DNA from: an uncultured Candidatus Rokubacteria bacterium
GTDB taxonomy: Bacteria; Methylomirabilota; Methylomirabilia; Rokubacteriales; DASRDR01
NCBI GenBank assembly: GCA_963826115.1
Contig: CAWGVS010000012.1
Location: 224,001-288,000, forward strand
Reading direction: 5' to 3'
Length of the DNA stretch: 64,000 nucleotides
The translations under genes and the position numbers were made by a program. The notes under the pieces were generated by a model. The model made no database searches. It was not told where the DNA came from and saw nothing but the letters and a program-made list of their open reading frames with translations. Positions 46,175 to 57,798 of the stretch are shown here, piece after piece; the first letter of the stretch is position 1, and every line of letters starts with the position of its first letter.

Positions 46175-47317
46175 CTACTTCACGACCAGGGTCTTGACCT
46201 GCTCGAAGCCGGTCCCCTTCACCTGGTAGACGAAGATGACGCCGCCGGCGACGTCGCCCTTGTCATCGAAGGTCAGCGGAATGCCGAGAATGCCCTTGTA
46301 CTCCTTGGTGGCGCGGACCGCGTCGCGGATCGCCGCCCGGTCCGTCTTCCCCACCTTCTTGATCGCCTCGAGGATGATGTTGGCCGCCTCGTACGCGAGG
46401 GGCCCGTAGGAGCTGACCGGGCCGTACTTCGCCTCGAACGACTTCACGAAGGCGGCTGCGGCCGGGATCTTCTTCAGGTCGGGCGCGAGGAAGGTGACGT
46501 AGTTGCCCTCCGCCGCGCCGCCCGCGGCCTGGATGTAGTCCACCGGCTCGAACTGGCCGTCCGGGCCGATCATCCGGACCTTGCCGAGGCCCACGTCCGG
46601 CAGCTGCTTGGCGATGAGCGCCGCCTCCGGCGCCCACAGGCTCGCGTAGATGACGTTCGTATCCTTGGGAAGCGTGCCGAGCACCGCGCGGAAGTCCTTG
46701 TCCCCCGCCCGCACCACGTACCGGAGCGCGGTGGCGCCCATCGCCTTCGCCTTCTTCTCGACCTCGTCGGCGGCGCCCTTCGGCCCCGTCGTCCCGTCGT
46801 CGAAGATCGCGATCTTCTTCGCCTTGAGCTCCTCGATGGCGAAGATGGCGCCGGCCGGGCCCTGCGCGTCGTCGCGCGCGCACACGCGGTTCGTGTTCTT
46901 GAGGCCGCGGTCGGTCACCTTCGGGTTCGTGCAGCCCGGGCTGATGAGGGGGATCGCAACCCGCTCCAGCACCTCGGAGACCGGAATGCACGTCACGCTG
47001 GTGATCCCCCAGACGGCGCCCATGACGGCGGGATCGGCCGCGACCTTCTCCGCCGCCGCCACGCCCACCTGCGGGTTCCCCTGGTCGTCGGCGTCCATGA
47101 CCTCGATCTTCTTCCCGAGGACGCCGCCCTTCGCGTTCCACTCCTCCACCGCCAGCTTGACGGCGTTCGCGACTTCCTGCCCCTGCTTCGCGAGCGGCCC
47201 CGTGAGGGGCACGCCGGCCGCGATCTTGATGGTCTGCTGGGCCTCGGCCGCCGGCCCGGCCAGCGCAACGGCTAGGGCGAGCCCCACACCCACGATCATT
47301 CGTCCGCGCATTCGCAT
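46175..47317 (-). CDS. Branched-chain amino acid ABC substrate-binding protein (LivK/LivJ type)
   Basis: Signal peptide, PLTG, GGVLG, DD, RDDAQG, FDDKGD; AAGGAGG RBS. Confidence 0.9.
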   Translation of the reverse strand: MRMRGRMIVGVGLALAVALAGPAAEAQQTIKIAAGVPLTGPLAKQGQEVANAVKLAVEEWNAKGGVLGKKIEVMDADDQGNPQVGVAAAEKVAADPAVMGAVWGITSVTCIPVSEVLERVAIPLISPGCTNPKVTDRGLKNTNRVCARDDAQGPAGAIFAIEELKAKKIAIFDDGTTGPKGAADEVEKKAKAMGATALRYVVRAGDKDFRAVLGTLPKDTNVIYASLWAPEAALIAKQLPDVGLGKVRMIGPDGQFEPVDYIQAAGGAAEGNYVTFLAPDLKKIPAAAAFVKSFEAKYGPVSSYGPLAYEAANIILEAIKKVGKTDRAAIRDAVRATKEYKGILGIPLTFDDKGDVAGGVIFVYQVKGTGFEQVKTLVVK

Positions 47318-47357
47318 CAGTTCCTCCTTCGCTGGTGAATGACGACCGCGTGCCGGG

Positions 47358-48674
47358 TCAGGGCAGCGCGCGCTCCGCCTGCAGATCGGCCACCGCCTTG
47401 CCCACCGCCACCGCCGTCTCCTCGATCTCACGGTCTCCGTGGACGGCCGAGACCCACCCATGGTTGGCGGACATGTCGACGCCGTGCAGGATCAGCGCGC
47501 AGCGCCACTTGTGAACCAGGCTCGCGTCCCGCTTCTTCCCCGCCTCGGGTGGCCCCTCGAGCGAGATGTGGCAGACGGAGACGTCCCCGTACGCGACGCA
47601 CGGCGCCCCGGCCTTCCGGAAGACGTCGTTGAGCGCGGCGCGCAGCTCCGCCCCGCGGGCGTTGGCGGTCTCGTGGTGCTTGCCGTCCGCGATCTGGGAC
47701 AGCATGGAAATCCCCGCCGTCGCGGTGAGCGGGTTGGAGTTGTAGGTCCCGTTCTGCGCCACGCGGCCCTGCCGGTTCCGCAGCGCATCGGTACCGAACG
47801 CCATCTGGCTCAAGATCGCGCGCTTCCCGCACACCGCTGCGCCCGGCAGCCCGCCCGCCACGATCTTCGCGAGGGTGGTCATGTCCGGGGTGATGCCGTA
47901 GTACTCCTGCGCCCCGCCGGGCGCGTAGCGGAACCCGGTGATGACCTCGTCGAAGATCAGCACGAGGTTGCGGTCGGACGTGAGCTGGCGGAGGTCCTTC
48001 AGAAAGCCCGGGTCGATCGGATCGGTGCCGGCCTGGGCGCCGCTCGGCTCGAGGATCACCGTGCCGATGTCGTCGCGGCTCTTGACCAGGCGCTCAAGGG
48101 CGCCCATGTCGTTCGCGGGCGACAGCAGCACCTCGCCGAGCACCGGGCCGGGGATCCCGGCCGACATGGGGATCTCGAAGGGCGGGTTCACACCGGTCGC
48201 CACGCCGTCGGCCCAGCCGTGGAAGTGGCCGGTGAACTTCACGAGCTTCGGCCGGCCAGAGTAGGCCCGCGCCAGCCGGATGGCGAGGTGCGTCGCCTCC
48301 GTCCCCGACATCGTGAACCGCACCATCTCGGCCGAGGGGATGAGCTTCGTGATCCAGTCGGCCCACTCGACCTCGAGCTTGTGGCACGCGCCGTAGTGCG
48401 TGCCGAGGCTCACCTGCCGCTTCACCGCCTCGACCATCGCGGGGTGGGAGTGCCCGAGGAACAGGGCTCCGTGGCCCATCCAGTAGTCGATGTACTCCCG
48501 GCCGTCCACGTCCCACTTGCGGGGCCCGGCGGCCCGCGCCACGTAGAGCGGGAAGGGAACCAGGTGGCGGCTGTCGTGCGTGATCCCGCCCGGGATGATG
48601 CGGCACGCCTTCTCCCACTCCGTCCAGGAGCCTGGCAGGGCCTTGCGGTATCGCTCGGCGATGGTCTCGCCCAT
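47358..48674 (-). CDS. Class III PLP aminotransferase (glutamate-1-semialdehyde aminomutase-like)
   Basis: WDVDGREYIDY, SGTEA, FHG, IFDEVITGFR, KIVAGGLP. Confidence 0.9.
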   Translation of the reverse strand: MGETIAERYRKALPGSWTEWEKACRIIPGGITHDSRHLVPFPLYVARAAGPRKWDVDGREYIDYWMGHGALFLGHSHPAMVEAVKRQVSLGTHYGACHKLEVEWADWITKLIPSAEMVRFTMSGTEATHLAIRLARAYSGRPKLVKFTGHFHGWADGVATGVNPPFEIPMSAGIPGPVLGEVLLSPANDMGALERLVKSRDDIGTVILEPSGAQAGTDPIDPGFLKDLRQLTSDRNLVLIFDEVITGFRYAPGGAQEYYGITPDMTTLAKIVAGGLPGAAVCGKRAILSQMAFGTDALRNRQGRVAQNGTYNSNPLTATAGISMLSQIADGKHHETANARGAELRAALNDVFRKAGAPCVAYGDVSVCHISLEGPPEAGKKRDASLVHKWRCALILHGVDMSANHGWVSAVHGDREIEETAVAVGKAVADLQAERALP

Positions 48675-48748
48675 GGGAAGATCCTCCTCAGTAGGGGCGC
48701 CGCTCCGCGAGCCGCGCGCCCGTTCCGGTGCGTCGGACGTAGGCGTCT

Positions 48749-48776
48749 ACTATGAGACCCGCACGCCCCCCGTCAA
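48749..48776 (-). promoter_or_regulatory. Sigma70-like promoter for the aminotransferase-liv operon
   Basis: Minus strand TTGACG-16 nt-CATAGT. Confidence 0.45.
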
Positions 48777-48824
48777 GACGCCCCGAACGGGGCGCGGGGA
48801 CCGACGGCGCGGGCGGGAGCCGCG

Positions 48825-49973
48825 CTACGCGGTCGGGGTCAGCCGCGCGGCCCGCGTCACGTGGTTGTCCCAGCGGGCCGCGGAGATGAACGGCGTGGAC
48901 AGGGCCGTCGTCCGGCCTTCGCGCGGATCCACGCGCACGGCCCCGCCGCGGCCACTGGTCAGGAGGAACGCGCCGGACGTCTCGTCGGCCGCGAGGCCGC
49001 ACCCGTCCGGGAGGTCGACCGTGCCGACCACGGCGGCCGTCGCGAGCTCCCAGAAGACCGCCACGCCGCCGCGCGGACACGAGACTCCGAGGAGCGTGCC
49101 CGTGGCGTCGACCGCCGCGGCGCCGCAGTACCCGCGCATGCGCGGCGTCACCGCCGGCCCCGCGTCGAGCACGGTCAGGCCAGCGCGGCGGCGCCAGACC
49201 GCCGCCAGGGGCACGAGGTCGTCCACGTCACCCTCGTCCTGGGCGGCGACCGCGATCAGGTCGCCCTGTCCGATCGCCAGGTGCCGAAGGCTCAACCGCC
49301 AGAACGGCTCGGGCAACCGCCCCTCGGCGAGGAGACGCCCGTCGCGCGCCGCGAGGAGCGCGAGGGTCGGGCGCATCCGGTCACGGTCGAGCTTGACGCC
49401 CGGCGCGTCGGCGTGCGTCACGATGCCGCCGTTGGCGACCACCAGCGTCTGCCCGTCCCCGAGGACCGCCACCTCGTGAGGGCCGACGCCGTGGCTCGCG
49501 ACCTCCCCGATTCGCCGGTATCCGCGATCGGGATCGTAGCGGCCGATGAGGCCCTTCCCCTCGTCCCCGACCTCCTCGGTCGCGCAGAGGAGCCCGCCGT
49601 CGCCCGTGTAGGTCCCGTGGCCGCAGAAGTGCCGGCCCGGCGCCGCCTCGATCGTGGCGAGGGCGCGCCCGCCGACGAGGTCGATCACGGTCGCCGTGCG
49701 TCCGGGTCGCCGCGAGAACAGAACCGCCTCCGGCCGGCGCGGGTGCACGGCGAACGCGTGGCCCCGCCCGGCCAGGACGACGTCGAGCGCCGGCGCGCCC
49801 GTCGCGTCGAAGCCGCTCGCGTGCGGCTGGCCGAGCGTGTCGTTCCGCGCGCTCAGGTAGAGCGCGCCGCCGGGCGCCGAGTCCGCGGCGCTCGGCGTCA
49901 GGAGCAGCGCGCCCAGCCCCGCGAGGAGCGCTCGACGGGTCAGGGGGCCGGGCTCAGTCGCCGTCGAGCGCAT
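48825..49973 (-). CDS. DUF1513 family beta-propeller protein, Tat signal
   Basis: TRRALL; RGH, RRPG, GRHFCGHG, GVGPHE, ANGGI, SLRHL, WDNH. Confidence 0.88.
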   Translation of the reverse strand: MRSTATEPGPLTRRALLAGLGALLLTPSAADSAPGGALYLSARNDTLGQPHASGFDATGAPALDVVLAGRGHAFAVHPRRPEAVLFSRRPGRTATVIDLVGGRALATIEAAPGRHFCGHGTYTGDGGLLCATEEVGDEGKGLIGRYDPDRGYRRIGEVASHGVGPHEVAVLGDGQTLVVANGGIVTHADAPGVKLDRDRMRPTLALLAARDGRLLAEGRLPEPFWRLSLRHLAIGQGDLIAVAAQDEGDVDDLVPLAAVWRRRAGLTVLDAGPAVTPRMRGYCGAAAVDATGTLLGVSCPRGGVAVFWELATAAVVGTVDLPDGCGLAADETSGAFLLTSGRGGAVRVDPREGRTTALSTPFISAARWDNHVTRAARLTPTA

Positions 49974-51090
49974 TGAATCCGAGCGGGAGGTCGAGCGCGG
50001 TGGTGAGGTGCTCGGCCACGGCGTGGCTCAGGCCTCGAACCTCCTTCAGGAGGCGCGCGACCGCGGGGCGCGTCCGCGGGGTCTTCACCGCCACGTCGAG
50101 GGTGCCCGGAATCCGGTCGGCCGCCGCGATGCAGGCGTCGAAACCGCGGCGCAGCCGGGCGTCGATCTCGGGCGCCGCCGCGACCTCCCGGACGAAGTCG
50201 CTGAGCCCCCATCCGCCGTCGCCGAGATAGAGCGCGCGGGCGGCGGCCAGGTTCAGCCGTAGGTTCCGGAGCGACCGGCCGCTCCGCCATTCCTCGGCCA
50301 GCATCGGACGGGCCCCCGCCACGGAGGGCCCGAGCGGCCGGGCGAGCTTGAGGCTCTCGATCCGCTGGAGCGCGCCGTGGAGGCTCCGGAGGAGCTCCAT
50401 CGTGGCGTCCTTCGGCTCCGGGTAGGCCGCGTTCCCGGGCCCCGCGGTTTCCATCCGGCGCGCGTACGCGGTCTCGCCGCCGGTCCACTCGCGGTGCACC
50501 TCGCCGGCGATCGTGGTCGCGTTCCGCGCGATCGCTTCGAGCACCTGGCAGCGACGCGCCGTCTCGTCACCGCCTCGCCGGAAGGCCGCCAGCGCGCCCT
50601 CGTCGAAGAGGAGACGCTCCACCGCCGGGAGCCCCTGGACGGCCGCGCTGACGTGCCGGAAGCCCTCGACGGTCAGGACCGCCGCGTCGCGTCCGGCGAG
50701 GAGCTCCGCGAGCTGCCGTCCCGTGGCGTTCCGGGGATCGGGCCAGAACGCGAACCGCTCGGCGCGGAGGCGTGACTGGATCGGTCCGGCCTGGACGTGC
50801 TCGACAGTTTGCCAGGCGTCGGCGGCCCCGTGATACGCGGTCCGGACCTCGTCGAGCGCCGCGGTCGCCGGCGCCTCGCAGAAGCGGCGGGCGGCGGCCT
50901 CCAGGTCGGCGGTCGCGCCGGCGAGCCGCGCATAGCGGGGCACCACGTGATGCGTGACGAACGACTCGTTCAGTCGCCGGTACGCCGGCTCGCGCTCCGC
51001 GTCGGCGCCGGCAGGGCCCGCGAGCAGGACGGTCCACACCGCGGCCAGGACGACCGCCCGCCACGACCCTCCTCGCCGGGTGGACGTCAC
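49954..51090 (-). CDS. Imelysin family protein (second, inactive type)
   Basis: Signal peptide; FWPD, QGLPAVERLLF, EWRS, C-terminal GFNALDGD. Confidence 0.88.
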   Translation of the reverse strand: MTSTRRGGSWRAVVLAAVWTVLLAGPAGADAEREPAYRRLNESFVTHHVVPRYARLAGATADLEAAARRFCEAPATAALDEVRTAYHGAADAWQTVEHVQAGPIQSRLRAERFAFWPDPRNATGRQLAELLAGRDAAVLTVEGFRHVSAAVQGLPAVERLLFDEGALAAFRRGGDETARRCQVLEAIARNATTIAGEVHREWTGGETAYARRMETAGPGNAAYPEPKDATMELLRSLHGALQRIESLKLARPLGPSVAGARPMLAEEWRSGRSLRNLRLNLAAARALYLGDGGWGLSDFVREVAAAPEIDARLRRGFDACIAAADRIPGTLDVAVKTPRTRPAVARLLKEVRGLSHAVAEHLTTALDLPLGFNALDGD

Positions 51091-51099
51091 GGGACGATC

Positions 51100-52683
51100 C
51101 TAGAGCGACCCCAGGAACGCCAGCAACGCCTCGCGCTCCTCGGGAGTCATCCGGACGACGCGCTGCTTGGCGGCCTCCGCCTCGCCGCCGTGCCAGAGCA
51201 CCGCCTCGAGGAGACTCCGCGCGCGGCCGTCGTGCAGGAAGCGCGTGTGGCCGCTGACGACGGGCGTGAGGCCGATGCCCCAGAGCGGCGGCGTCCGCCA
51301 CTCCTGTCCGGTGGCCCGCCCTTCCGGCCGGTCGTCGGCGAGCCCTGGCCCCATGTCGTGCAGCAAGAGATCCGTGTAGGGCCAGATGAGCTGGCGGCTC
51401 AGCTCGGGCCGCTCGGGCTCGACGCGCGTCAGGTACTTCGCCGTGTGGCACGCCGGACAGCCCGTCCGATAGAAGGCCCGCTTCCCGCGCAGCACCTCCG
51501 GAGCGTCGACGCGACGTCGGAGCGGCACCGCGAGGTTCCGGGCGTAGAAGACGACCAGGTCGAACATCGTGGGCGCGACCTCGACGCCGGGAGGCTCGTC
51601 CGCCCCGGACGGCGCGCCGCGACAGAGCGCCTGGGCCGCCGTGCAGTCTCCCGCCGCCGCGGGCAAGAGCTCCGTCGACAGCCCCATGTCGCCGCTGAAC
51701 GCGCCCGCCGTCTGGTCCCGGATCGTCGCGCGGGCCGCCTTCCAGCCGAACCGACCGAGCATCGGCCGCCCGTGCTCCATGCTCCACACGGAGTTCGGAC
51801 GTCCCGAGATACCGTCGCCGTCGCGGTCGTCGGGATCCGCGCGCGCCAGGATGTCGGCTTCGTCCACCAGCTCCAGCAGGCCGAGCCCGATCATCGGTGC
51901 CGCCACCCGGGGCGAGACGAGAACGTCCGATCGCATCGGCCCGTACCCGAGATCCACGATCTGATAGCGGGGCCGCCGCAGGTGGACGATCGCGCCGCCG
52001 TGGAGGGCCACTGGGCGGTCCTCGTAGGTGATCCGCACGCGGGCCTCGGGTGCGTGGCCCTGGATCGCGAACCCCTGGAGCTGCCCCCCGTAGGTCGGCT
52101 CCGGCACGATCGTCTGCCGGCCTTCCTCGATCGCCTGGCGCTCGGCGTCCGTGCCCGGCGGCACGCTCAGCCGGAACAGCATCGTGGTGCCATCTCCGTC
52201 CGGCCACCGGCCGCCATCGGCGGGGTGCCCGCGGCCATCCTTCAGGTGACAGCTCTGGCAGGAGCGGGCGTTGTAGAGGGGGCCGAGCCCGTCCGACGAC
52301 TTCGTGGACGACGGCGCCGAGACCCACAGCTTCCGGAAGATCCCGTCGCCGACCTTGAAATCGAGCTGCTGCGCGAAGGTGAGGGTCGACGAGAAATGGG
52401 AGAACGAGCTGCGGCCGACCGCGTGGCGCGACGTCGCCGCGCCGCCCGGCAGCTCCTCGTCGGGCTCGGGCGCCGAGAAGTCGCGGGGCGGCGCGAGCAG
52501 CGCCGCCCGATCGGTGGCGTCGAGACCCGGCGCCGGCGGGGACTCCGGCCCGTCGGCGCCGAGGACCCCCGCCAGCACGACCAGTCCGGCCGCCGCGGCC
52601 AAGAGGGCGCCCAGCGCGGCCCGGGGCAGGCGGGGGGCGAGTCCCGCGCCTCGCCCCCTGTCCGCTCCCCGCGCCGCTTGCAT
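51100..52683 (-). CDS. Di-heme oxidoreductase (DHOR/DUF1111) family protein
   Basis: DGLGPLYNARSCQSCH, YGGQLQ, GRFGWKA, CPACH, YTDLLLHDMG, WRTPPLWG, LHDGRAR. Confidence 0.92.
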   Translation of the reverse strand: MQAARGADRGRGAGLAPRLPRAALGALLAAAAGLVVLAGVLGADGPESPPAPGLDATDRAALLAPPRDFSAPEPDEELPGGAATSRHAVGRSSFSHFSSTLTFAQQLDFKVGDGIFRKLWVSAPSSTKSSDGLGPLYNARSCQSCHLKDGRGHPADGGRWPDGDGTTMLFRLSVPPGTDAERQAIEEGRQTIVPEPTYGGQLQGFAIQGHAPEARVRITYEDRPVALHGGAIVHLRRPRYQIVDLGYGPMRSDVLVSPRVAAPMIGLGLLELVDEADILARADPDDRDGDGISGRPNSVWSMEHGRPMLGRFGWKAARATIRDQTAGAFSGDMGLSTELLPAAAGDCTAAQALCRGAPSGADEPPGVEVAPTMFDLVVFYARNLAVPLRRRVDAPEVLRGKRAFYRTGCPACHTAKYLTRVEPERPELSRQLIWPYTDLLLHDMGPGLADDRPEGRATGQEWRTPPLWGIGLTPVVSGHTRFLHDGRARSLLEAVLWHGGEAEAAKQRVVRMTPEEREALLAFLGSL

Positions 52684-52697
52684 CGAGACCCGCCTGG

Positions 52698-53987
52698 CTA
52701 CTTCTTCTTGTCCTTGGCCACGTCGTCCGGCTTGTCCAGGCTGTCGGAGCCCTCGAACTTGATCGCCTTCAGCTTCAGCGCCGCGACGACCCGCTCGAAC
52801 GTCTTCGTCTGGTCCACCAGCCCGTCGATGACCGCCTGGACGACGGCGTTCCCCTCGGGGTTGTTGGGGCCGATCATCTGATCGTACCGCTCCTTCGTCT
52901 CGGCCCGCTCCTTCAGCCGCCGCACGGCGGCCAGCGTCGTCTCGAGCTTCGTCGCCATCTCGCGCTGGAGGTCCGGCGCCACCTCGCCGAGCAGCGCCGC
53001 GAGCGACGGGCCCTGGACCACGCGGCCGTCGACCCGCACGTAGCGGCCGTTGTAGACGTTCGACATGCCGACGATGTCGTAGTAGTGCGAGTTGTGCGTG
53101 TTGTCCGAGAAGCAGTCGTGCTCCTCCTCGGGGTCGTGGAGGAGGAGACCGAGCTTCATCCGCTCGCCCGCCAGCTCTCCGTACGACAGGCTCCCGAGGC
53201 CGGTCAGGATCGCGGCGAGCCCGGTATCCGGCCGACCCTTGGTGAGCTCCTTCCGCGCCTGTCCGCCCGGGGCAAACTGCCGCGCGATCCAGGCCAGGTC
53301 CTCGACGAGCAGCTCGGAGGCGGCCGTGAGGTACTGGGCGCGCCGGTCGCAGTTGCCGTGCGTGCAGCTCGTCCGGCTGTAGTCGGTCCACGGCCGGTTG
53401 CCCGCGCCCGGCCCTGTCCCGTTGAGGTCCTGTCCCCAGAGGAGGAACTCGATCGCGTGGTAGCCGGTGGCCACGTTCGCCTCGACGCCGCCGATCTCGT
53501 GCAGCTCGTGCAGGACCTTCTTGGTGATCGTGGACGCGTCCAGGCTCTTCGCGCCGACCTTGAGGCGCTTGTTCGCGATCACGTTGGCGGTGTAGTAGGG
53601 GTTCGAGTCCGACGCGTTGCCGTACTGCCCCTCGACGTAGTCGATCAGCCCCTCGTCCAGCGGCCAGGCGTTGACCTTCCCCTCCCACTCGTCCACGACG
53701 CTGTTCCCGAAGCGGAACACCTCGGACTGCATGTAGGGCTCGCGCGCCGCGATCCACGCCTCGCGCGCGGCCTGGAGGGTGGCCTCGCTGGGGTTGTCCA
53801 CCAGCGCCTTCGTCGCCTTCTGGAGCCGGCGGGCGCGCGCGAGGGCGTCCTCGTAAATCGCCTGCCCGATGTCCGCGTACGTCTTCACGACATCGGCGCG
53901 GTCGGTCTGCGCGACACCCGGCGGCGGCGCGCTCAGGACGAACGTCGCCGCGAATCCCGCGACGAGGGCGGCTCGTACGAATCTCAT
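52698..53987 (-). CDS. Imelysin/IrpA-like iron-regulated protein (peptidase M75 family)
   Basis: Signal peptide; VNAWPLDEGLIDYV, TGYHAIEFLLWGQD (GxHxxE), EEEHDCFSDNT; GGAGGAG RBS. Confidence 0.92.
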   Translation of the reverse strand: MRFVRAALVAGFAATFVLSAPPPGVAQTDRADVVKTYADIGQAIYEDALARARRLQKATKALVDNPSEATLQAAREAWIAAREPYMQSEVFRFGNSVVDEWEGKVNAWPLDEGLIDYVEGQYGNASDSNPYYTANVIANKRLKVGAKSLDASTITKKVLHELHEIGGVEANVATGYHAIEFLLWGQDLNGTGPGAGNRPWTDYSRTSCTHGNCDRRAQYLTAASELLVEDLAWIARQFAPGGQARKELTKGRPDTGLAAILTGLGSLSYGELAGERMKLGLLLHDPEEEHDCFSDNTHNSHYYDIVGMSNVYNGRYVRVDGRVVQGPSLAALLGEVAPDLQREMATKLETTLAAVRRLKERAETKERYDQMIGPNNPEGNAVVQAVIDGLVDQTKTFERVVAALKLKAIKFEGSDSLDKPDDVAKDKKK

Positions 53988-54016
53988 GACACTCCTCCCC
54001 GCGTCCCGGCGGGCGC

Positions 54017-55432
54017 TCACTTGTAGGTCACCGACACCTTGCCGAACAGCTCGTGCTGGTCCGACGCGGCGGTCTGCCGGGCCGCGCCCCCGCGCTCGAG
54101 ATCGCTGTACCGGTACTCGCCGGACAGGCCGACGCTGATGTCACCCTTCTCGTAGATGATCCAGCCCGCGCCGAGGCTGATCCGGTTGCGGACCGACCAC
54201 ACCCCGGTCGTGCTCGCCAGGCCGTCGTCCCAGAAGTGGGTGTAGCGCAGGCCGAGCTCCACCTTCTCGATCGGCCGGTAGTAGAGCCCGAAGCTCACCT
54301 GCTTCTCCTTGAAGCTCCGGCCGAGCCGCACGGGCGTCGTGGTCGACTCCCCGGTGGCGGGATCGGTGGCGCTGATCTGCTGGACGTAGTCCTCGCGGGA
54401 GAGCGCCATGTAGAACTCCGCCTCGGCGGTCAGCGGTCCCCAGGTGTAGCCGCCCCAGAGACCCGCGGTCTGGTTCCGCCGGCCCGCGCCCGGCTCGCTC
54501 GAGATCCCGCCCCCGACCGTGAGGTCCGGCAGCGGCGTGACGTTCACCGCTCCGATGAACGACTGGATGTTGTCGGACGCGTCGGCCAGCCCGACCGAGC
54601 TCGCGCGGACGATGGTCACGTTGTCGAAGAGCGTGGACCCGAAGAAGTGATCCATCAGCTCTTCCTGCCGATAGGCGGTGAAGGAGGCGTCCAGGCCCCA
54701 CAGCGCCTTGTTCTTGTAGCCGAGAGTCACCCCGACCTGGTTCGCCTCGTAGGCGTCCTTGGACGGCGTGTCCGTGACGAGGTGCTCATAGAAGGCGCCG
54801 AAGGGCTGCGTCCGCTTGCCGATCACGAAGTAGAGGGGGAATCCGTCCTCCTGCTCGAACGTGATCGTCGCCTCGTCGACCACCACCGCGCTGTCGGCCT
54901 CGGCGCCGCCGTCCGTGGTGTCCGACCCGAAGTACTCGCTCTTGAGCACCAGCTTGCCGGTGATGTAGTCGGTGGGCTTGAACTCGAAGTCGACCTCGGC
55001 GTCGCGGAGGAAGATGTCGGAGGTCGAGCCGCTGTTGCGGTCGCCGAGATTGCCGTAGCGCCGCCAGCGCACCTCGCCCTCCAGGGTCACCGAGATCGAG
55101 ATCGCCGCCTCGTCCTTCTCGGCCATCTCGGTCAGGATCTCGTTGCGCACCTGGCCGACGGCCTCGTTGAGCTGCGCCTCGGTCACGGGGGCCTGACCGG
55201 GAGCCGGCGCCGCCGAGGCCGGTGCGGGCGCGGGGACCGGCGACGCGGGAGCCGCCGCCTTCTGCGCGGCCTCCTCGGCGGCCATCTCGCGCTTCAGGGC
55301 GTCGACATCCTCCTGGGTGAGGATGCCCTTCCGGATCAGGAGCTTCAGCAGGGCGTCGTCCGACCCGGCCTGGGCCGGCGTCACGCCGAGGAGTCCCACC
55401 ATGAGCACCGCCAAGAGCCCGACCCTGCGCAT
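54017..55432 (-). CDS. Outer-membrane beta-barrel porin, LbtU-like
   Basis: Signal peptide AQA; LLKLLIRKGILT leader, Pro/Ala linker, SDIFL..AE, VDEATIT, GK..PFG.F..HLVTD, amphipathic strands ending in VSVTYK. Confidence 0.72.
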   Translation of the reverse strand: MRRVGLLAVLMVGLLGVTPAQAGSDDALLKLLIRKGILTQEDVDALKREMAAEEAAQKAAAPASPVPAPAPASAAPAPGQAPVTEAQLNEAVGQVRNEILTEMAEKDEAAISISVTLEGEVRWRRYGNLGDRNSGSTSDIFLRDAEVDFEFKPTDYITGKLVLKSEYFGSDTTDGGAEADSAVVVDEATITFEQEDGFPLYFVIGKRTQPFGAFYEHLVTDTPSKDAYEANQVGVTLGYKNKALWGLDASFTAYRQEELMDHFFGSTLFDNVTIVRASSVGLADASDNIQSFIGAVNVTPLPDLTVGGGISSEPGAGRRNQTAGLWGGYTWGPLTAEAEFYMALSREDYVQQISATDPATGESTTTPVRLGRSFKEKQVSFGLYYRPIEKVELGLRYTHFWDDGLASTTGVWSVRNRISLGAGWIIYEKGDISVGLSGEYRYSDLERGGAARQTAASDQHELFGKVSVTYK

Positions 55433-55522
55433 CTCGACCTCCCGGTCCGGTCAGGACCGTCGTTCAGGCGCGGGGCGTGGGGCCGCTGGCCGCTGGGACA
55501 CCGCTTCGCGTCGCGAACCGCG

Positions 55523-55753
55523 TCAGCCCGTGCGGGGGCCGCACACCTCGCAGGTCGAGAGCCCCGCCACCGGCAGGACGACCACCCGCTTGCAACGCCG
55601 ACACTTCAGCTCCACCCCGCCCGGCCGGAGCCGCGCCAGGAGACTCCCGCAGCCGCACCGGCAATCGCGCGCGGGATCCGTCACCGAGGGCTCCAGCCGG
55701 ACGTCGGGCGCGCGATCCGGCACGCGACCGGACGGCGCGGGGCGGGAGGTCAT
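55523..55753 (-). CDS. Small Com-like zinc-ribbon protein (76 aa)
   Basis: CRCGCGSLLAR...VELKCRRCKR plus a C-terminal CEVC; AGAGGAG RBS. Confidence 0.7.
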   Translation of the reverse strand: MTSRPAPSGRVPDRAPDVRLEPSVTDPARDCRCGCGSLLARLRPGGVELKCRRCKRVVVLPVAGLSTCEVCGPRTG

Positions 55754-55809
55754 CCGGAACTCTTCTCCTCTTCGTCGGGAACCGGCCCTTGCGTCGGGCC
55801 AACCAGAGC

Positions 55810-55841
55810 GTTAAGTATCCTTAACTCAATCGCCCTGTCAA
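55810..55841 (-). promoter_or_regulatory. Promoter (-35 TTGACA) with an overlapping AT-rich palindromic operator, probably for a metal-responsive repressor
   Basis: Minus strand TTGACA (55841-55836)...GATACT; GTTAAG-TATC-CTTAAC inverted repeat at 55810-55825 overlapping the 19-bp TTAAGT-N7-ACTCAA (55811-55829). Confidence 0.65.
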
Positions 55842-55996
55842 CCCTAATTCGTGGACGTCGCCCGCCGCGCCGCCGGGCGCCCGGGGGCCGACCCGCCTGG
55901 CCAGTGCACCGCCCGGCGTGGGGACGGGCTCTCGATCGGAGTGGCCTATACTCGGGCCCGGACTCGCGCCCGGATGACGGGCGCCCTGGAGGCGTG

Positions 55997-56887
55997 ATGG
56001 CGAGCGACCCCGGCCCGGGCCTGGTGGTGGGCACCGGCGACTTCGTCTACGACGTGGTGCGACCCTGGGGCGCGCTGCCCCCCGGCTGGACCCTGGGGCT
56101 CGTCAGCCACGTCGCCGTGGACTCGCGGGATCGCGTGTACTTCTACCAGCGCAAGGACCCGCCGGTCCTCATCTTCGACGAGGCCGGCCACTTCCTCGAC
56201 GGCTGGGGCAGCCAGCGGCTCCGCGACGCACACGGGATCTTCATCGGTCCCGACGACCACGTCTACCTCTGCAACCGGGACGAGCACGAGGTGCTGAAGC
56301 TCACGCGCGAGGGACGTGTCGTGCTGACCTTGGGTCACCGGGGCCGACCCGCCCTCCAGGCGCCGTTCAATCACCCCGCCGACGTTGCCGTATCCCCCGA
56401 CGGCGAGATCTACGTGGCGGACGGGTACGGGAACTCGTCGGTGCACCGGTTCTCGGCCGACGGTCGGCACCTCGGCTCGTGGGGCGCGCCCGGAGCGGAG
56501 CGCGGACAGTTCACGACTCCGCACGGCATCTGGGTCGACCGCCCGGACCGCGTGCTGGTCGCCGACCGGGAGAACAACCGGGTCCAGCTCTTCAGCCCCG
56601 AGGGCGATTACTACGACGAGTGGCGAGACCTCTACCATCCGATGGACATCTACGTCGACGCCGCCGGCATCGTGTACGTGACCGACCAGATCCCGCGCAT
56701 CAGCATGTACGCGCCGGACGGCCGGCTCCTGGCGCGGGGGCGCCCGGTGAACGTGGGCGCCCACGGCGTGTGGGGCGACTCGCGCGGGAACCTCTACCTC
56801 GCCGAGGTCGGCGTGAACCAGGTGACCAAGCTCGTCCGGCGACACCCCGTCGCCCCCGAGCCCCCACCCGGGCCGGCCCGTCCATGA
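55997..56887 (+). CDS. NHL-repeat beta-propeller protein (PAL-like)
   Basis: FNHPADVAV..DG.IYVADGYGN, FTTPHGI, VADRENNRVQ. Confidence 0.88.
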   Translation: MASDPGPGLVVGTGDFVYDVVRPWGALPPGWTLGLVSHVAVDSRDRVYFYQRKDPPVLIFDEAGHFLDGWGSQRLRDAHGIFIGPDDHVYLCNRDEHEVLKLTREGRVVLTLGHRGRPALQAPFNHPADVAVSPDGEIYVADGYGNSSVHRFSADGRHLGSWGAPGAERGQFTTPHGIWVDRPDRVLVADRENNRVQLFSPEGDYYDEWRDLYHPMDIYVDAAGIVYVTDQIPRISMYAPDGRLLARGRPVNVGAHGVWGDSRGNLYLAEVGVNQVTKLVRRHPVAPEPPPGPARP

Positions 56888-57798
56888 GGCTCGCCGTCAT
56901 GGGCGCCGGCGCCGTCGGCGGCTACATCGGCGCGCGGATGGCCGCCGCCGGGGCGGAGGTGTCGCTCCTGGCGCGCGGGGCGCATCTCGCGGCGATCCGC
57001 GCGCACGGGCTCGCGGTCGAGAGCCCTCTCGGCGACACGCGGCTCGTGCCGGCCGCCGCCACGGACGACCCGGCGACGGTGGGGCCGGTGGACGTCGTCC
57101 TGCTGGCGACCAAGCTCTACGACGTGGAGGCGGCGGCCAGCGCGATCGGGCCGCTCGTGGGCCACGACACCGCCATCGTGTGCCTGCAGAACGGCGTCGA
57201 CGCCATGGACATCGTGGCCCGTCGCCACGGTCGCGCGCGCGTCGTGGGGGGCGTGGTCATGATCAACGGCGAGATCGTGGCGCCGGGCGTCATCCGTCAC
57301 CACGCGCTGAACCGCCTCACCCTGGGCGAGCTCGAGTGGCGCGAGGGGCGCCTCGCCCGCCTCGTGGCCCTCGGCAACCGCGCCGGGATCGAGACCGTCC
57401 CGAGCGACGACATCCGCCTCGACATCTGGCGCAAGTTTCTCGTCCTCGCGCCGATGGCGGCGCTGAGCGCCATGACCCGCGCGCCGCTCGGTGCGATCCG
57501 CGCGCACGCAGCGACGTGGCGGCTGGCCGAGCTCGGCATGCGGGAGGTGGTCGCGGTGGCGAACGCCCAGGGCGTCGCGCTCACCGAGGAGGACGTCCGG
57601 CGCACGCTCGCGTTCGTGCAGGGCATGCCCGACACCTGGCGGGCGTCCCTGGCTGCGGACCTCGCGCACGGGCGGCGCCTGGAGGTCGACTGGCTGGCGG
57701 GCGCCGTCGCACGGCTCGGCGACGCCGCGGGGATCGCCACTCCGTTCCACCGCGTCGCGCTCGGCGTGCTCGCGCCGCACGCCGCCGGCGCCCCCTGA
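56884..57798 (+). CDS. panE: 2-dehydropantoate 2-reductase family (PanE/ApbA)
   Basis: GAGAVGG, LQNG, WRKF, SL..DL..GRRLEVD. Confidence 0.85.
   Translation: MRLAVMGAGAVGGYIGARMAAAGAEVSLLARGAHLAAIRAHGLAVESPLGDTRLVPAAATDDPATVGPVDVVLLATKLYDVEAAASAIGPLVGHDTAIVCLQNGVDAMDIVARRHGRARVVGGVVMINGEIVAPGVIRHHALNRLTLGELEWREGRLARLVALGNRAGIETVPSDDIRLDIWRKFLVLAPMAALSAMTRAPLGAIRAHAATWRLAELGMREVVAVANAQGVALTEEDVRRTLAFVQGMPDTWRASLAADLAHGRRLEVDWLAGAVARLGDAAGIATPFHRVALGVLAPHAAGAP

Follow-up and report, generated by a model that had tools for sequence, protein, structure and literature searches.

Bacterial iron uptake, as described so far, is controlled mainly by Fur-type repressors, small RNAs and sigma/anti-sigma signalling. 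At the head of iron and haem uptake operons, the small regulators HemP and HmuP are reported to act on the expression of the downstream receptor gene; they are not known to contain a zinc ribbon or to work through an RNA motif of the kind described below. RNA-binding proteins that act on a leader element overlapping a terminator, and thereby decide read-through, are represented by TRAP, PyrR, HutP and BglG/LicT, which sense amino acids, nucleotides or sugars and whose folds differ from that of the family considered here. The closest known relative of that family is Com of phage Mu, characterized as a zinc-finger translational regulator (an activator) of mom, with cysteines 6, 9, 26 and 29 (PMC3299994), and imelysin-like proteins have been implicated in iron uptake (PMC3143127). 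Here we describe a small, cysteine-rich, Com-related protein whose gene opens an iron-uptake-type operon in a 64,000-nucleotide stretch of DNA (the window; positions 224,001 to 288,000 of contig CAWGVS010000012.1, assembly GCA_963826115.1) from an uncultured Candidatus Rokubacteria bacterium, together with a leader motif that lies between this gene and the next. That a Com-type RNA-binding regulator controls iron-uptake operons post-transcriptionally through this leader motif, most likely as an activator or antiterminator, is the explanation we regard as fairly probable.

The Com-related gene and its leader motif

Judged by its substitution pattern, the small open reading frame is a real protein-coding gene and not a chance frame of high-G+C DNA. 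The sequence GAGGAG stands 11 nucleotides (nt) ahead of its ATG, and the column entropies at 17 conserved residues, taken over 62 distinct homologous nucleotide sequences, are 0.19, 0.03 and 1.19 bits for codon positions 1, 2 and 3; variation is thus almost confined to the third codon position, which shows the protein to be under selection. A word-indexed search returned 632 protein clusters of the family at E ≤ 0.01, and 335 loci emerged when one genome for each species was scanned by pattern. The best 80 of these 335 are from Myxococcota, Binatia, Methylomirabilota (Rokubacteria), Nitrospirota and others. JGI names 19 of the 120 homologues listed ‘phage FluMu protein Com’, and precomputed Pfam domains are absent from all 120. 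One family member is named ‘transposase’ in its JGI record, which may be because an IS1595-type transposase gene adjoins the small gene directly upstream at one Binatia locus (L020:5575-6618).

Alignment of 52 members gave 17 invariant columns (R32, C33, C35, G36, L38, L39, A40, R41, E48, L49, K50, C51, R52, R53, C54, K55 and R56), among them the cysteines C33, C35, C51 and C54, spaced CxC-x15-CxxC. The first knuckle is therefore CxC in this alignment, not CxxC as an earlier note on this DNA had read it. In the AlphaFold model (mean pLDDT 61.8) a three-stranded core spans residues 38–61 with a pLDDT of about 75–84, and the tails are disordered. Nothing significant was found among solved structures, the best match by sequence being uS14 (E 0.13), and a Foldseek fold search with this moderately confident model gave a best E-value of 2.0, among miscellaneous zinc ribbons. 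Zn_ribbon_4 (E 0.056) and Zn_ribbon_SprT were the sole Pfam matches of the small protein at E ≤ 10. A second weak protein match in the window genome (contig C5, E 6.6e-4) lies inside an open frame of 726 residues and was taken as chance.

At the profile level, the small protein and Mu Com are distantly related. BLASTP against Com itself (from NC_000929) gave 32% identity over 37 residues (E 5e-5), and hhalign of the family against 20 Com sequences gave a probability of 95.7–95.9 (E 6e-9 to 9e-9, 36–38 columns), compared with 11.4 for reversed Com and at most 18.1 in 20 column permutations with the Cys columns fixed; the alignment requires a one-residue gap in the first knuckle. The PHROG profile phrog_13819 (‘gpCom control of modification’) was matched by 47 of the 52 members at E ≤ 0.1 (best 4.3e-4), and phrog_6417 (‘translational regulator’) was touched by 39 of them. 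By contrast, the Pfam model PF10122 (Zn_ribbon_Com, gathering score 22.9 bits) matched 0 of the 52 members at E ≤ 1 and was not found in 251 genomes of the phylum, nor was the small-gene locus among the five best places for it in the window genome at E ≤ 10; precomputed PF10122 assignments cover none of the 120 listed homologues and 21 of 21 close relatives of Mu Com. The description of the protein as Com-like in the earlier note is thus borne out by hhalign and the Com PHROGs, but the HMM search against the Com family that the note had put forward as a check fails with the Pfam model. Given profile-level similarity in the absence of a PF10122 match, the family is treated here as a separate cellular branch of Com-type zinc ribbons rather than a member of PF10122. 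Its location outside any prophage, also claimed earlier, is upheld by chromosomal synteny and by a tblastn search over 50,697 phage records that gave no real match, only two chance ones antisense to an adaptor gene of a Streptomyces phage.

The leader motif downstream of the small gene is new by comparison with Rfam, from which it is absent: no Rfam 15 covariance model matched either strand of 47000–57500 at E ≤ 1. Its consensus over 55 aligned instances, about 35 nt long, is CC-AGC-GGCC-AGC-GGTC-n(3-7)-GAACCC-AGAGCCC; these instances were chosen by regular expression, a choice that accounts for part of the invariance of the columns. The covariance model derived from the 55 instances was searched against 907 kb of the 80 loci on both strands (E ≤ 1) and gave 73 matches, all of them (73 of 73) in the orientation of the small gene, with no match on the opposite strand. 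At least one match was present in 68 of the 80 loci, including 12 outside the model-building set. The motif usually starts 10–100 nt past the stop codon of the small gene. In Binatia it stands about 1 kb off, past a convergent ferritin gene and ahead of imelysin and di-haem oxidoreductase (DHOR) genes, and several loci bear a second copy about 4.8 kb downstream, ahead of another imelysin gene. Seven of the 15 stand-alone copies have a Fur-box-like site 68–152 nt upstream (all Fur-box scores given here refer to the classical 19-bp consensus). Such distant stand-alone copies imply that the presumed factor would act in trans as well. In the 6.2-Mb window genome, the copy in the window is the only good one by covariance model, nhmmer and regular expression alike, and a motif regulon elsewhere in that genome was rejected as no extra copies were found.

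The motif occurs only where the protein occurs, and is strand-specific. Among 61 relatives of the window genome, motif matches of at least 40 bits were confined to G000, G011, G012, G039 and G044, which are exactly the genomes with a strong protein match, and each of these motifs adjoins the gene; as the same five genomes fed the motif model, only the absence elsewhere is informative. Weak motif matches (28–34 bits) were seen in three other relatives. An independent set was provided by 81 genomes of the myxobacterial order to which a Corallococcus locus belongs; just two of these genomes also figured in the other analyses. Here, the protein is present in 26 genomes, one copy each, and the motif (E ≤ 0.05) in 20. 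All 20 motif-bearing genomes encode the protein, and no motif was found in the 55 genomes that lack it; in 19 of the 20 the motif follows closely behind the small gene and in the same orientation. The myxobacterial genome G286 has a second strong copy of the motif (41.5 bits; contig C1, 3321399-3321444), about 537 kb from the small gene, and this remote copy is consistent with action in trans.

Operon layout and gene neighbourhoods

In the window, a promoter-like site, the Cys-rich small gene, a leader and five further genes form a single compact gene run on the minus strand, from 55841 to 48825, in which adjoining genes abut or share 4–20 nt (Table 1). All of the parts that the earlier note had named (operator/promoter, Cys-rich open reading frame, porin, imelysin, DHOR, second imelysin and DUF1513 protein) were found on that strand. 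The imelysin, DHOR, second imelysin and DUF1513 genes of this one operon score above the Pfam cut-offs of their families, with 283.9, 298.4, 189.6 and 310.2 bits, respectively. The DHOR probably starts at the ATG at 52683, giving 527 residues, and the DUF1513 protein has TRRALLAG near its N-terminus. The window porin scores 68.6 bits (E 6e-19) against NCBIfam NF033652 (LbtU_sider_porin), for which the curated cut-off is 90 bits, over profile positions 3–130 of 327 only, and its match to Pfam Porin_5 is weak; by these scores it is a relative of the LbtU siderophore porins outside the curated family. The closest named record, from a Candidatus Methylomirabilota assembly, has a porin 87% identical to that of the window, with the same small gene and leader.

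Table 1. Coordinates of the operon features in the window and of comparable cassettes in relatives
Feature	Position	Strand	Remarks
Sigma-70-like promoter TTGACA-16-GATACT	55814..55841	-	Upstream of small gene
Palindrome GTTAAG-N4-CTTAAC (6-4-6), candidate operator	55810..55825	-	Overlaps -10 hexamer
Com-related zinc-ribbon gene, 76 amino acids	55523..55753	-	First cistron; coding selection and profile similarity to Com
Conserved core RCxCGSLLAR-x4-GVELKCRRCKR, residues 32-56	55586..55660	-	4 invariant Cys, 7 invariant basic residues
Leader, 90 nt, from small gene to porin gene	55433..55522	-	
Leader motif, model R1 match of 40.7 bits	55459..55503	-	Core GGCC-AGC-GGCC-CCAC-GCCCCGCGCC at 55467-55491
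Outer-membrane porin, LbtU-like	54017..55432	-	NCBIfam match under family cut-off
Imelysin (Peptidase_M75)	52698..54020	-	PF09375, E 2e-84
Di-haem oxidoreductase (DHOR)	51100..52683	-	PF06537, E 1e-88
Second imelysin	49954..51090	-	PF09375, E 1e-55
DUF1513 protein, twin-arginine N-terminus	48825..49973	-	PF07433, E 2e-92
Porin/FMN_bind/ApbE cassettes in relatives	L014:7265-11244, L024:7302-10855, L031:7231-10752, L057:7331-10906		Similar ones at other loci

The sigma-70-like promoter is the sole site of its kind in 55300–56100 (mean 0.0 in 50 shuffles), and its -35 hexamer and flank are kept in two genus relatives. The palindrome at its -10 hexamer is a single copy in the window genome; what the two genus relatives keep in place of the palindrome is TTAGGGnTnAC, directly repeated at -35 and at -10 (55810–55860, minus strand), and this repeat is likewise unique in the 6.2 Mb. 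A regulon of either element was rejected, each being unique in the genome. The direct repeat suggests a dedicated regulator other than classical Fur. Upstream of the operon, a divergent gene for an NHL-repeat beta-propeller (56000–56887, plus strand) retains its synteny in two genus relatives, and a class-III aminotransferase gene (47358–48674, minus strand) lies 150 nt past the DUF1513 gene; neither has an evident tie to the operon.

The earlier note had expected homologues to precede iron-uptake genes, and the survey of neighbourhoods confirms this, on a broader scale than had been claimed. Genes in the loci were called with a simple caller based on G+C at third positions, and the 80 first downstream genes scanned against Pfam are those of L002–L005 and of 76 loci of L012–L091. 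Twenty-eight of them belong to one porin-like family of 425–551 residues, with weak Pfam porin matches in eight, and seven to the LbtU-like group of the window, to which matches of the LbtU model are confined, always below the cut-off. The others include TonB-dependent receptors (4) and ExbB (1), FMN_bind proteins behind an uncalled gap of porin size (3), cupredoxins or multicopper oxidases (3), a di-haem peroxidase-like protein (1), convergent ferritin-like genes in Binatia (12) and about seven unrelated convergent genes (MetRS, epimerase, TPR, PEGA and one unassigned). Farther downstream are FMN_bind, an unknown gene and ApbE; TonB receptors with HmuY, HemS/ChuX and Peripla_BP_2; and also TonB/ExbD, FeoA, a PiuC-like hydroxylase, and imelysin with DHOR. 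By tblastn with the window proteins, imelysin or DHOR lies downstream in 15 of the 80 loci L012–L091.

Directly upstream, a Fur-family gene on the same strand was found in 11 of 72 loci; the same position is taken by FeoB (3), FeoA (1), a DtxR-type repressor fused to FeoA (1) and cytochrome c–FTR1 fusions (3), and also by ExbB, NifU, multicopper oxidases and ApbE. In 37 of 64 loci, a Fur-box-like site matching at least 13 of 19 positions (for example, GAAATTGAAAATGATTTTC) precedes the conserved core by 70–160 nt.

Several arrangements recur or stand apart. The genes of the cytochrome c–FTR1 fusion permeases (676–678 residues) stop right where the small gene starts, or run into it (L013:4976-7009, L044:3736-5766 and L063:4465-6501). 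In two loci from another family of the same order (L004:2-1498 and L005:1646-3100), hardly any spacer separates the small gene from a multicopper oxidase gene ahead of it, and the small gene is there an internal cistron, not the first. In Myxococcota and Binatia, a cassette after the motif consists of the porin-like gene (425–551 residues), FMN_bind (about 180–200), an unknown gene (about 170–195) and ApbE; it resembles an exported flavoprotein system tied to the porin, possibly a ferric reductase. Also in Binatia (L067:7001-12495 and, similarly, L061, L078, L082 and L089), the small gene stands tail to tail with a ferritin-like gene of 153 residues, and the motif follows about 1 kb on, ahead of a conserved open reading frame of 93–94 residues without a Pfam family, imelysin and DHOR; no Fur-box-like site was found upstream of the motif copies in these loci. 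At L056:7001-11279 (Anaeromyxobacter soli), where no motif was found, the small gene is followed by genes for chorismate mutase, DAHP synthase, EPSP synthase and shikimate dehydrogenase, which may be a link to the precursors of catechol siderophores or a different target.

Proposed post-transcriptional control and its alternatives

In the mechanism that we propose, iron limitation would lift Fur repression of the module in most relatives, and the first cistron would yield the Com-like protein, which would bind the leader motif of its own mRNA and of other motif-bearing leaders. In some relatives the bound protein would keep a terminator, with the motif tail as its 5′ arm, from forming, and in others, including the window, it would free the ribosome-binding and start region. 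The uptake genes would then be expressed under two layers of control, Fur at transcription and the leader at the RNA; this could provide a delay or threshold behind Fur, with the folding state of the Cys4 metal site as a second input. We infer binding of the motif by the protein, an RNA rather than a DNA target, the direction of the effect and any sensing role that the metal site may have; as the earlier note supposed, the protein may sense metal and may activate translation of the porin specifically.

In 11 of 60 distinct instances, the motif tail, AGAGCCC, begins the 5′ arm of a hairpin that has 13–17 pairs and a U-rich tract behind it, whereas the same terminator criterion applied at random positions of the same loci returned 10 of 3,000. 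The overlap of tail and terminator resembles the usual attenuator layout, in which a bound factor would compete with the terminator. We infer an activating sign from the location of this 5′ arm within the best-conserved part of the motif and from the activating role of Com. These same points bear on an alternative with the same partners and the opposite sign, a post-transcriptional repressor, perhaps active only when loaded with iron, that would stabilize the terminator or a closed start and so supplement Fur control with negative feedback. All of the linkage evidence would fit such a repressor equally, its Cys4 site could in principle hold Fe(II), and repressors, too, typically come as autoregulatory first cistrons. 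A protein bound at the most conserved part of the motif would, however, be expected to compete with the hairpin, an alternative antiterminator pairing is not evident, and the closest known relative, Com, is an activator (PMC3299994); we hold a repressor to be unlikely.

One helix within the motif covaries. Columns 20–22 pair with columns 31–33 in 99.4% of cells, with two-sided changes at the middle and inner pairs (UA 30, CG 18, UG 6, CU 1, CA 0; GC 47, GU 7, AU 1), and the covariation score of this 3-pair helix is 0.404, compared with 0.256 in shuffles, none of 500 of which reached it; slid controls were far lower. Its CG and UA classes each span loci of 0.5 to 0.73 G+C, so that base composition alone fails to explain the covariation. 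A GGCC-NNN-GGYC hairpin, 95.9% paired yet without covariation, was rejected. The lack of covariation in this first hairpin would suit a reading of the motif as a DNA operator and of the protein as a DNA-binding transcription factor, acting as a roadblock or as the activator of an internal promoter. The NCBI name ‘Com family DNA-binding transcriptional regulator’ points the same way, as does the legibility of the motif as tandem heptads (AGCGGCC AGCGGTC ... AGAGCCC), which could suit a multimer. This reading is nevertheless decidedly unlikely in view of the single orientation of all 73 matches, the position of the motif within the transcribed leader between cistrons, the overlap with terminator stems, the covarying helix and the role of Com as a translational regulator (PMC3299994).

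A number of observations weigh against post-transcriptional control by a Com-type protein in the form proposed. The covarying helix comprises 3 pairs only, and relatedness (and G+C) may inflate its score. Minimum-energy folds of the window and of many relatives pair the motif tail with the Shine–Dalgarno or start region, but the tail pairs the start region in 31 of 50 such folds compared with 29.2 of 50 after permutation of the tail (ten bases), the window leader is no more stable than its shuffles (z = -0.22), and the start-occluding helix is without covariation in the window clade (six-sequence alignment). Start-site occlusion by the motif tail did not exceed the permutation control; given that control and the lack of covariation, occlusion in the window is a prediction only. 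On the side of the protein, PF10122 gave no match to the small protein at E ≤ 10, and the first knuckle of the family is CxC where that of Com is CxxC (CxxC-x16-CxxC). The motif model reached 3.3 bits at best in the com–mom region of Mu, and the RNA target is not demonstrably Com-like. The motif was not found in 12 of the 80 loci (L026, L029, L040, L053, L056, L060, L064, L065, L074, L077, L086 and L090), of which L053 ends 41 nt past the small gene, nor, at E ≤ 0.05, in six of the 26 protein-bearing myxobacterial genomes; many of the genomes in which protein and motif co-occur are related and not independent, and the co-occurrence counts are given without a P value. Finally, the window promoter has no recognizable Fur box, the best match being 10/19 to the classical consensus, and no classical site of at least 16/19 was found in the whole window genome, though three Fur-family genes are present. 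With no recognizable Fur box at an operator that is unique in the genome and partly conserved in the genus, the transcriptional layer of metal control proposed in the earlier note is therefore not supported for the window, although most relatives are preceded by Fur-box-like sites.

Protein and motif might also not be partners, the motif being a riboswitch or the target of another factor and the protein a metal or redox accessory of the rubredoxin or Bfd type, co-located with it through the iron regulon. The CxC...CxxC spacing resembles the cysteine pattern of bacterioferritin-associated ferredoxin, and the tail-to-tail arrangement with a ferritin-like gene in Binatia would agree with such a role. 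Against this, a Bfd-like ferredoxin or rubredoxin identity was rejected, as no Fer2_BFD or rubredoxin Pfam match was found at E ≤ 10; the invariant surface is strongly basic, the profile similarity is to an RNA-binding regulator, and the protein is without a signal peptide whereas the operon products are exported. The motif was found in none of the 55 + 56 genomes that lack the protein, an odd distribution for a riboswitch working on its own, and about 35 nt with 3–4 pairs is small for a ligand-binding fold. An unpartnered protein and motif are quite improbable. The notion, carried over from the earlier note, that the extra cysteines present in the window protein (C31, C68 and C71) make it a direct Fe or Zn sensor can be nearly dismissed, as many relatives have L, S, V, F or H in place of C31 and the C-terminal CEVC is missing even within the genus.

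A bolder version of control by a Com-type RNA-binding regulator, conceivable though doubtful, would be a widespread and so far undescribed riboregulatory checkpoint behind Fur, formed by the zinc ribbon and its leader motif in at least five phyla and exerted by antitermination or translational unlocking, in which the Cys4 site itself senses by its occupancy with Fe(II)/Zn(II) or by oxidation of its thiols, and import is licensed only when the one-domain protein folds safely.

Comparison with known systems

If control by a Com-type regulator holds, iron uptake in bacteria would come under a further, post-transcriptional layer of control, exerted by a protein with its own leader element that occurs in Myxococcota, Binatia, Methylomirabilota, Nitrospirota and others; Com, until now a curiosity of phages, would gain a large family in cells, one with a defined physiological theme, and the module would offer a compact, portable protein–RNA switch for engineering. 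Both the gene, which is unannotated, and the RNA motif are currently missed by genome annotation. Cultivable myxobacteria carry the module, which makes the hypothesis directly testable.

The position of the small gene in its operon is similar to that of HemP/HmuP, but the families are unrelated, and HemP was not among the general Pfam matches of the window proteins and the small protein. From TRAP, PyrR, HutP and BglG/LicT the presumed regulator differs in being the first cistron of the mRNA that it would regulate and in its theme, iron. The structural genes of the window fall into the families of the imelysin-DHOR-imelysin-DUF1513 clusters; a Com-like first cistron or a leader motif is not mentioned in the abstract of PMC3143127, and no published description of the Com-like family at iron loci was found in a search whose coverage left out most subscription journals.

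The likeness to Mu Com is closer. Both proteins are small (about 60–76 residues), basic, four-cysteine zinc ribbons, both are encoded directly upstream of the gene thought to be controlled and on the same transcript, and they share the core LL..x..(V/I)E(L/I)(K/R)C.RCKR.(V/I). By contrast, the family described here is chromosomal and not borne by phages or prophages, it is followed by iron-uptake genes whereas Com is followed by DNA-modification genes (mom), and it has a conserved leader motif of its own. Some of its leaders bear terminators, which would make antitermination possible besides translational control, and its module often lies behind fur and Fur-box-like sites.

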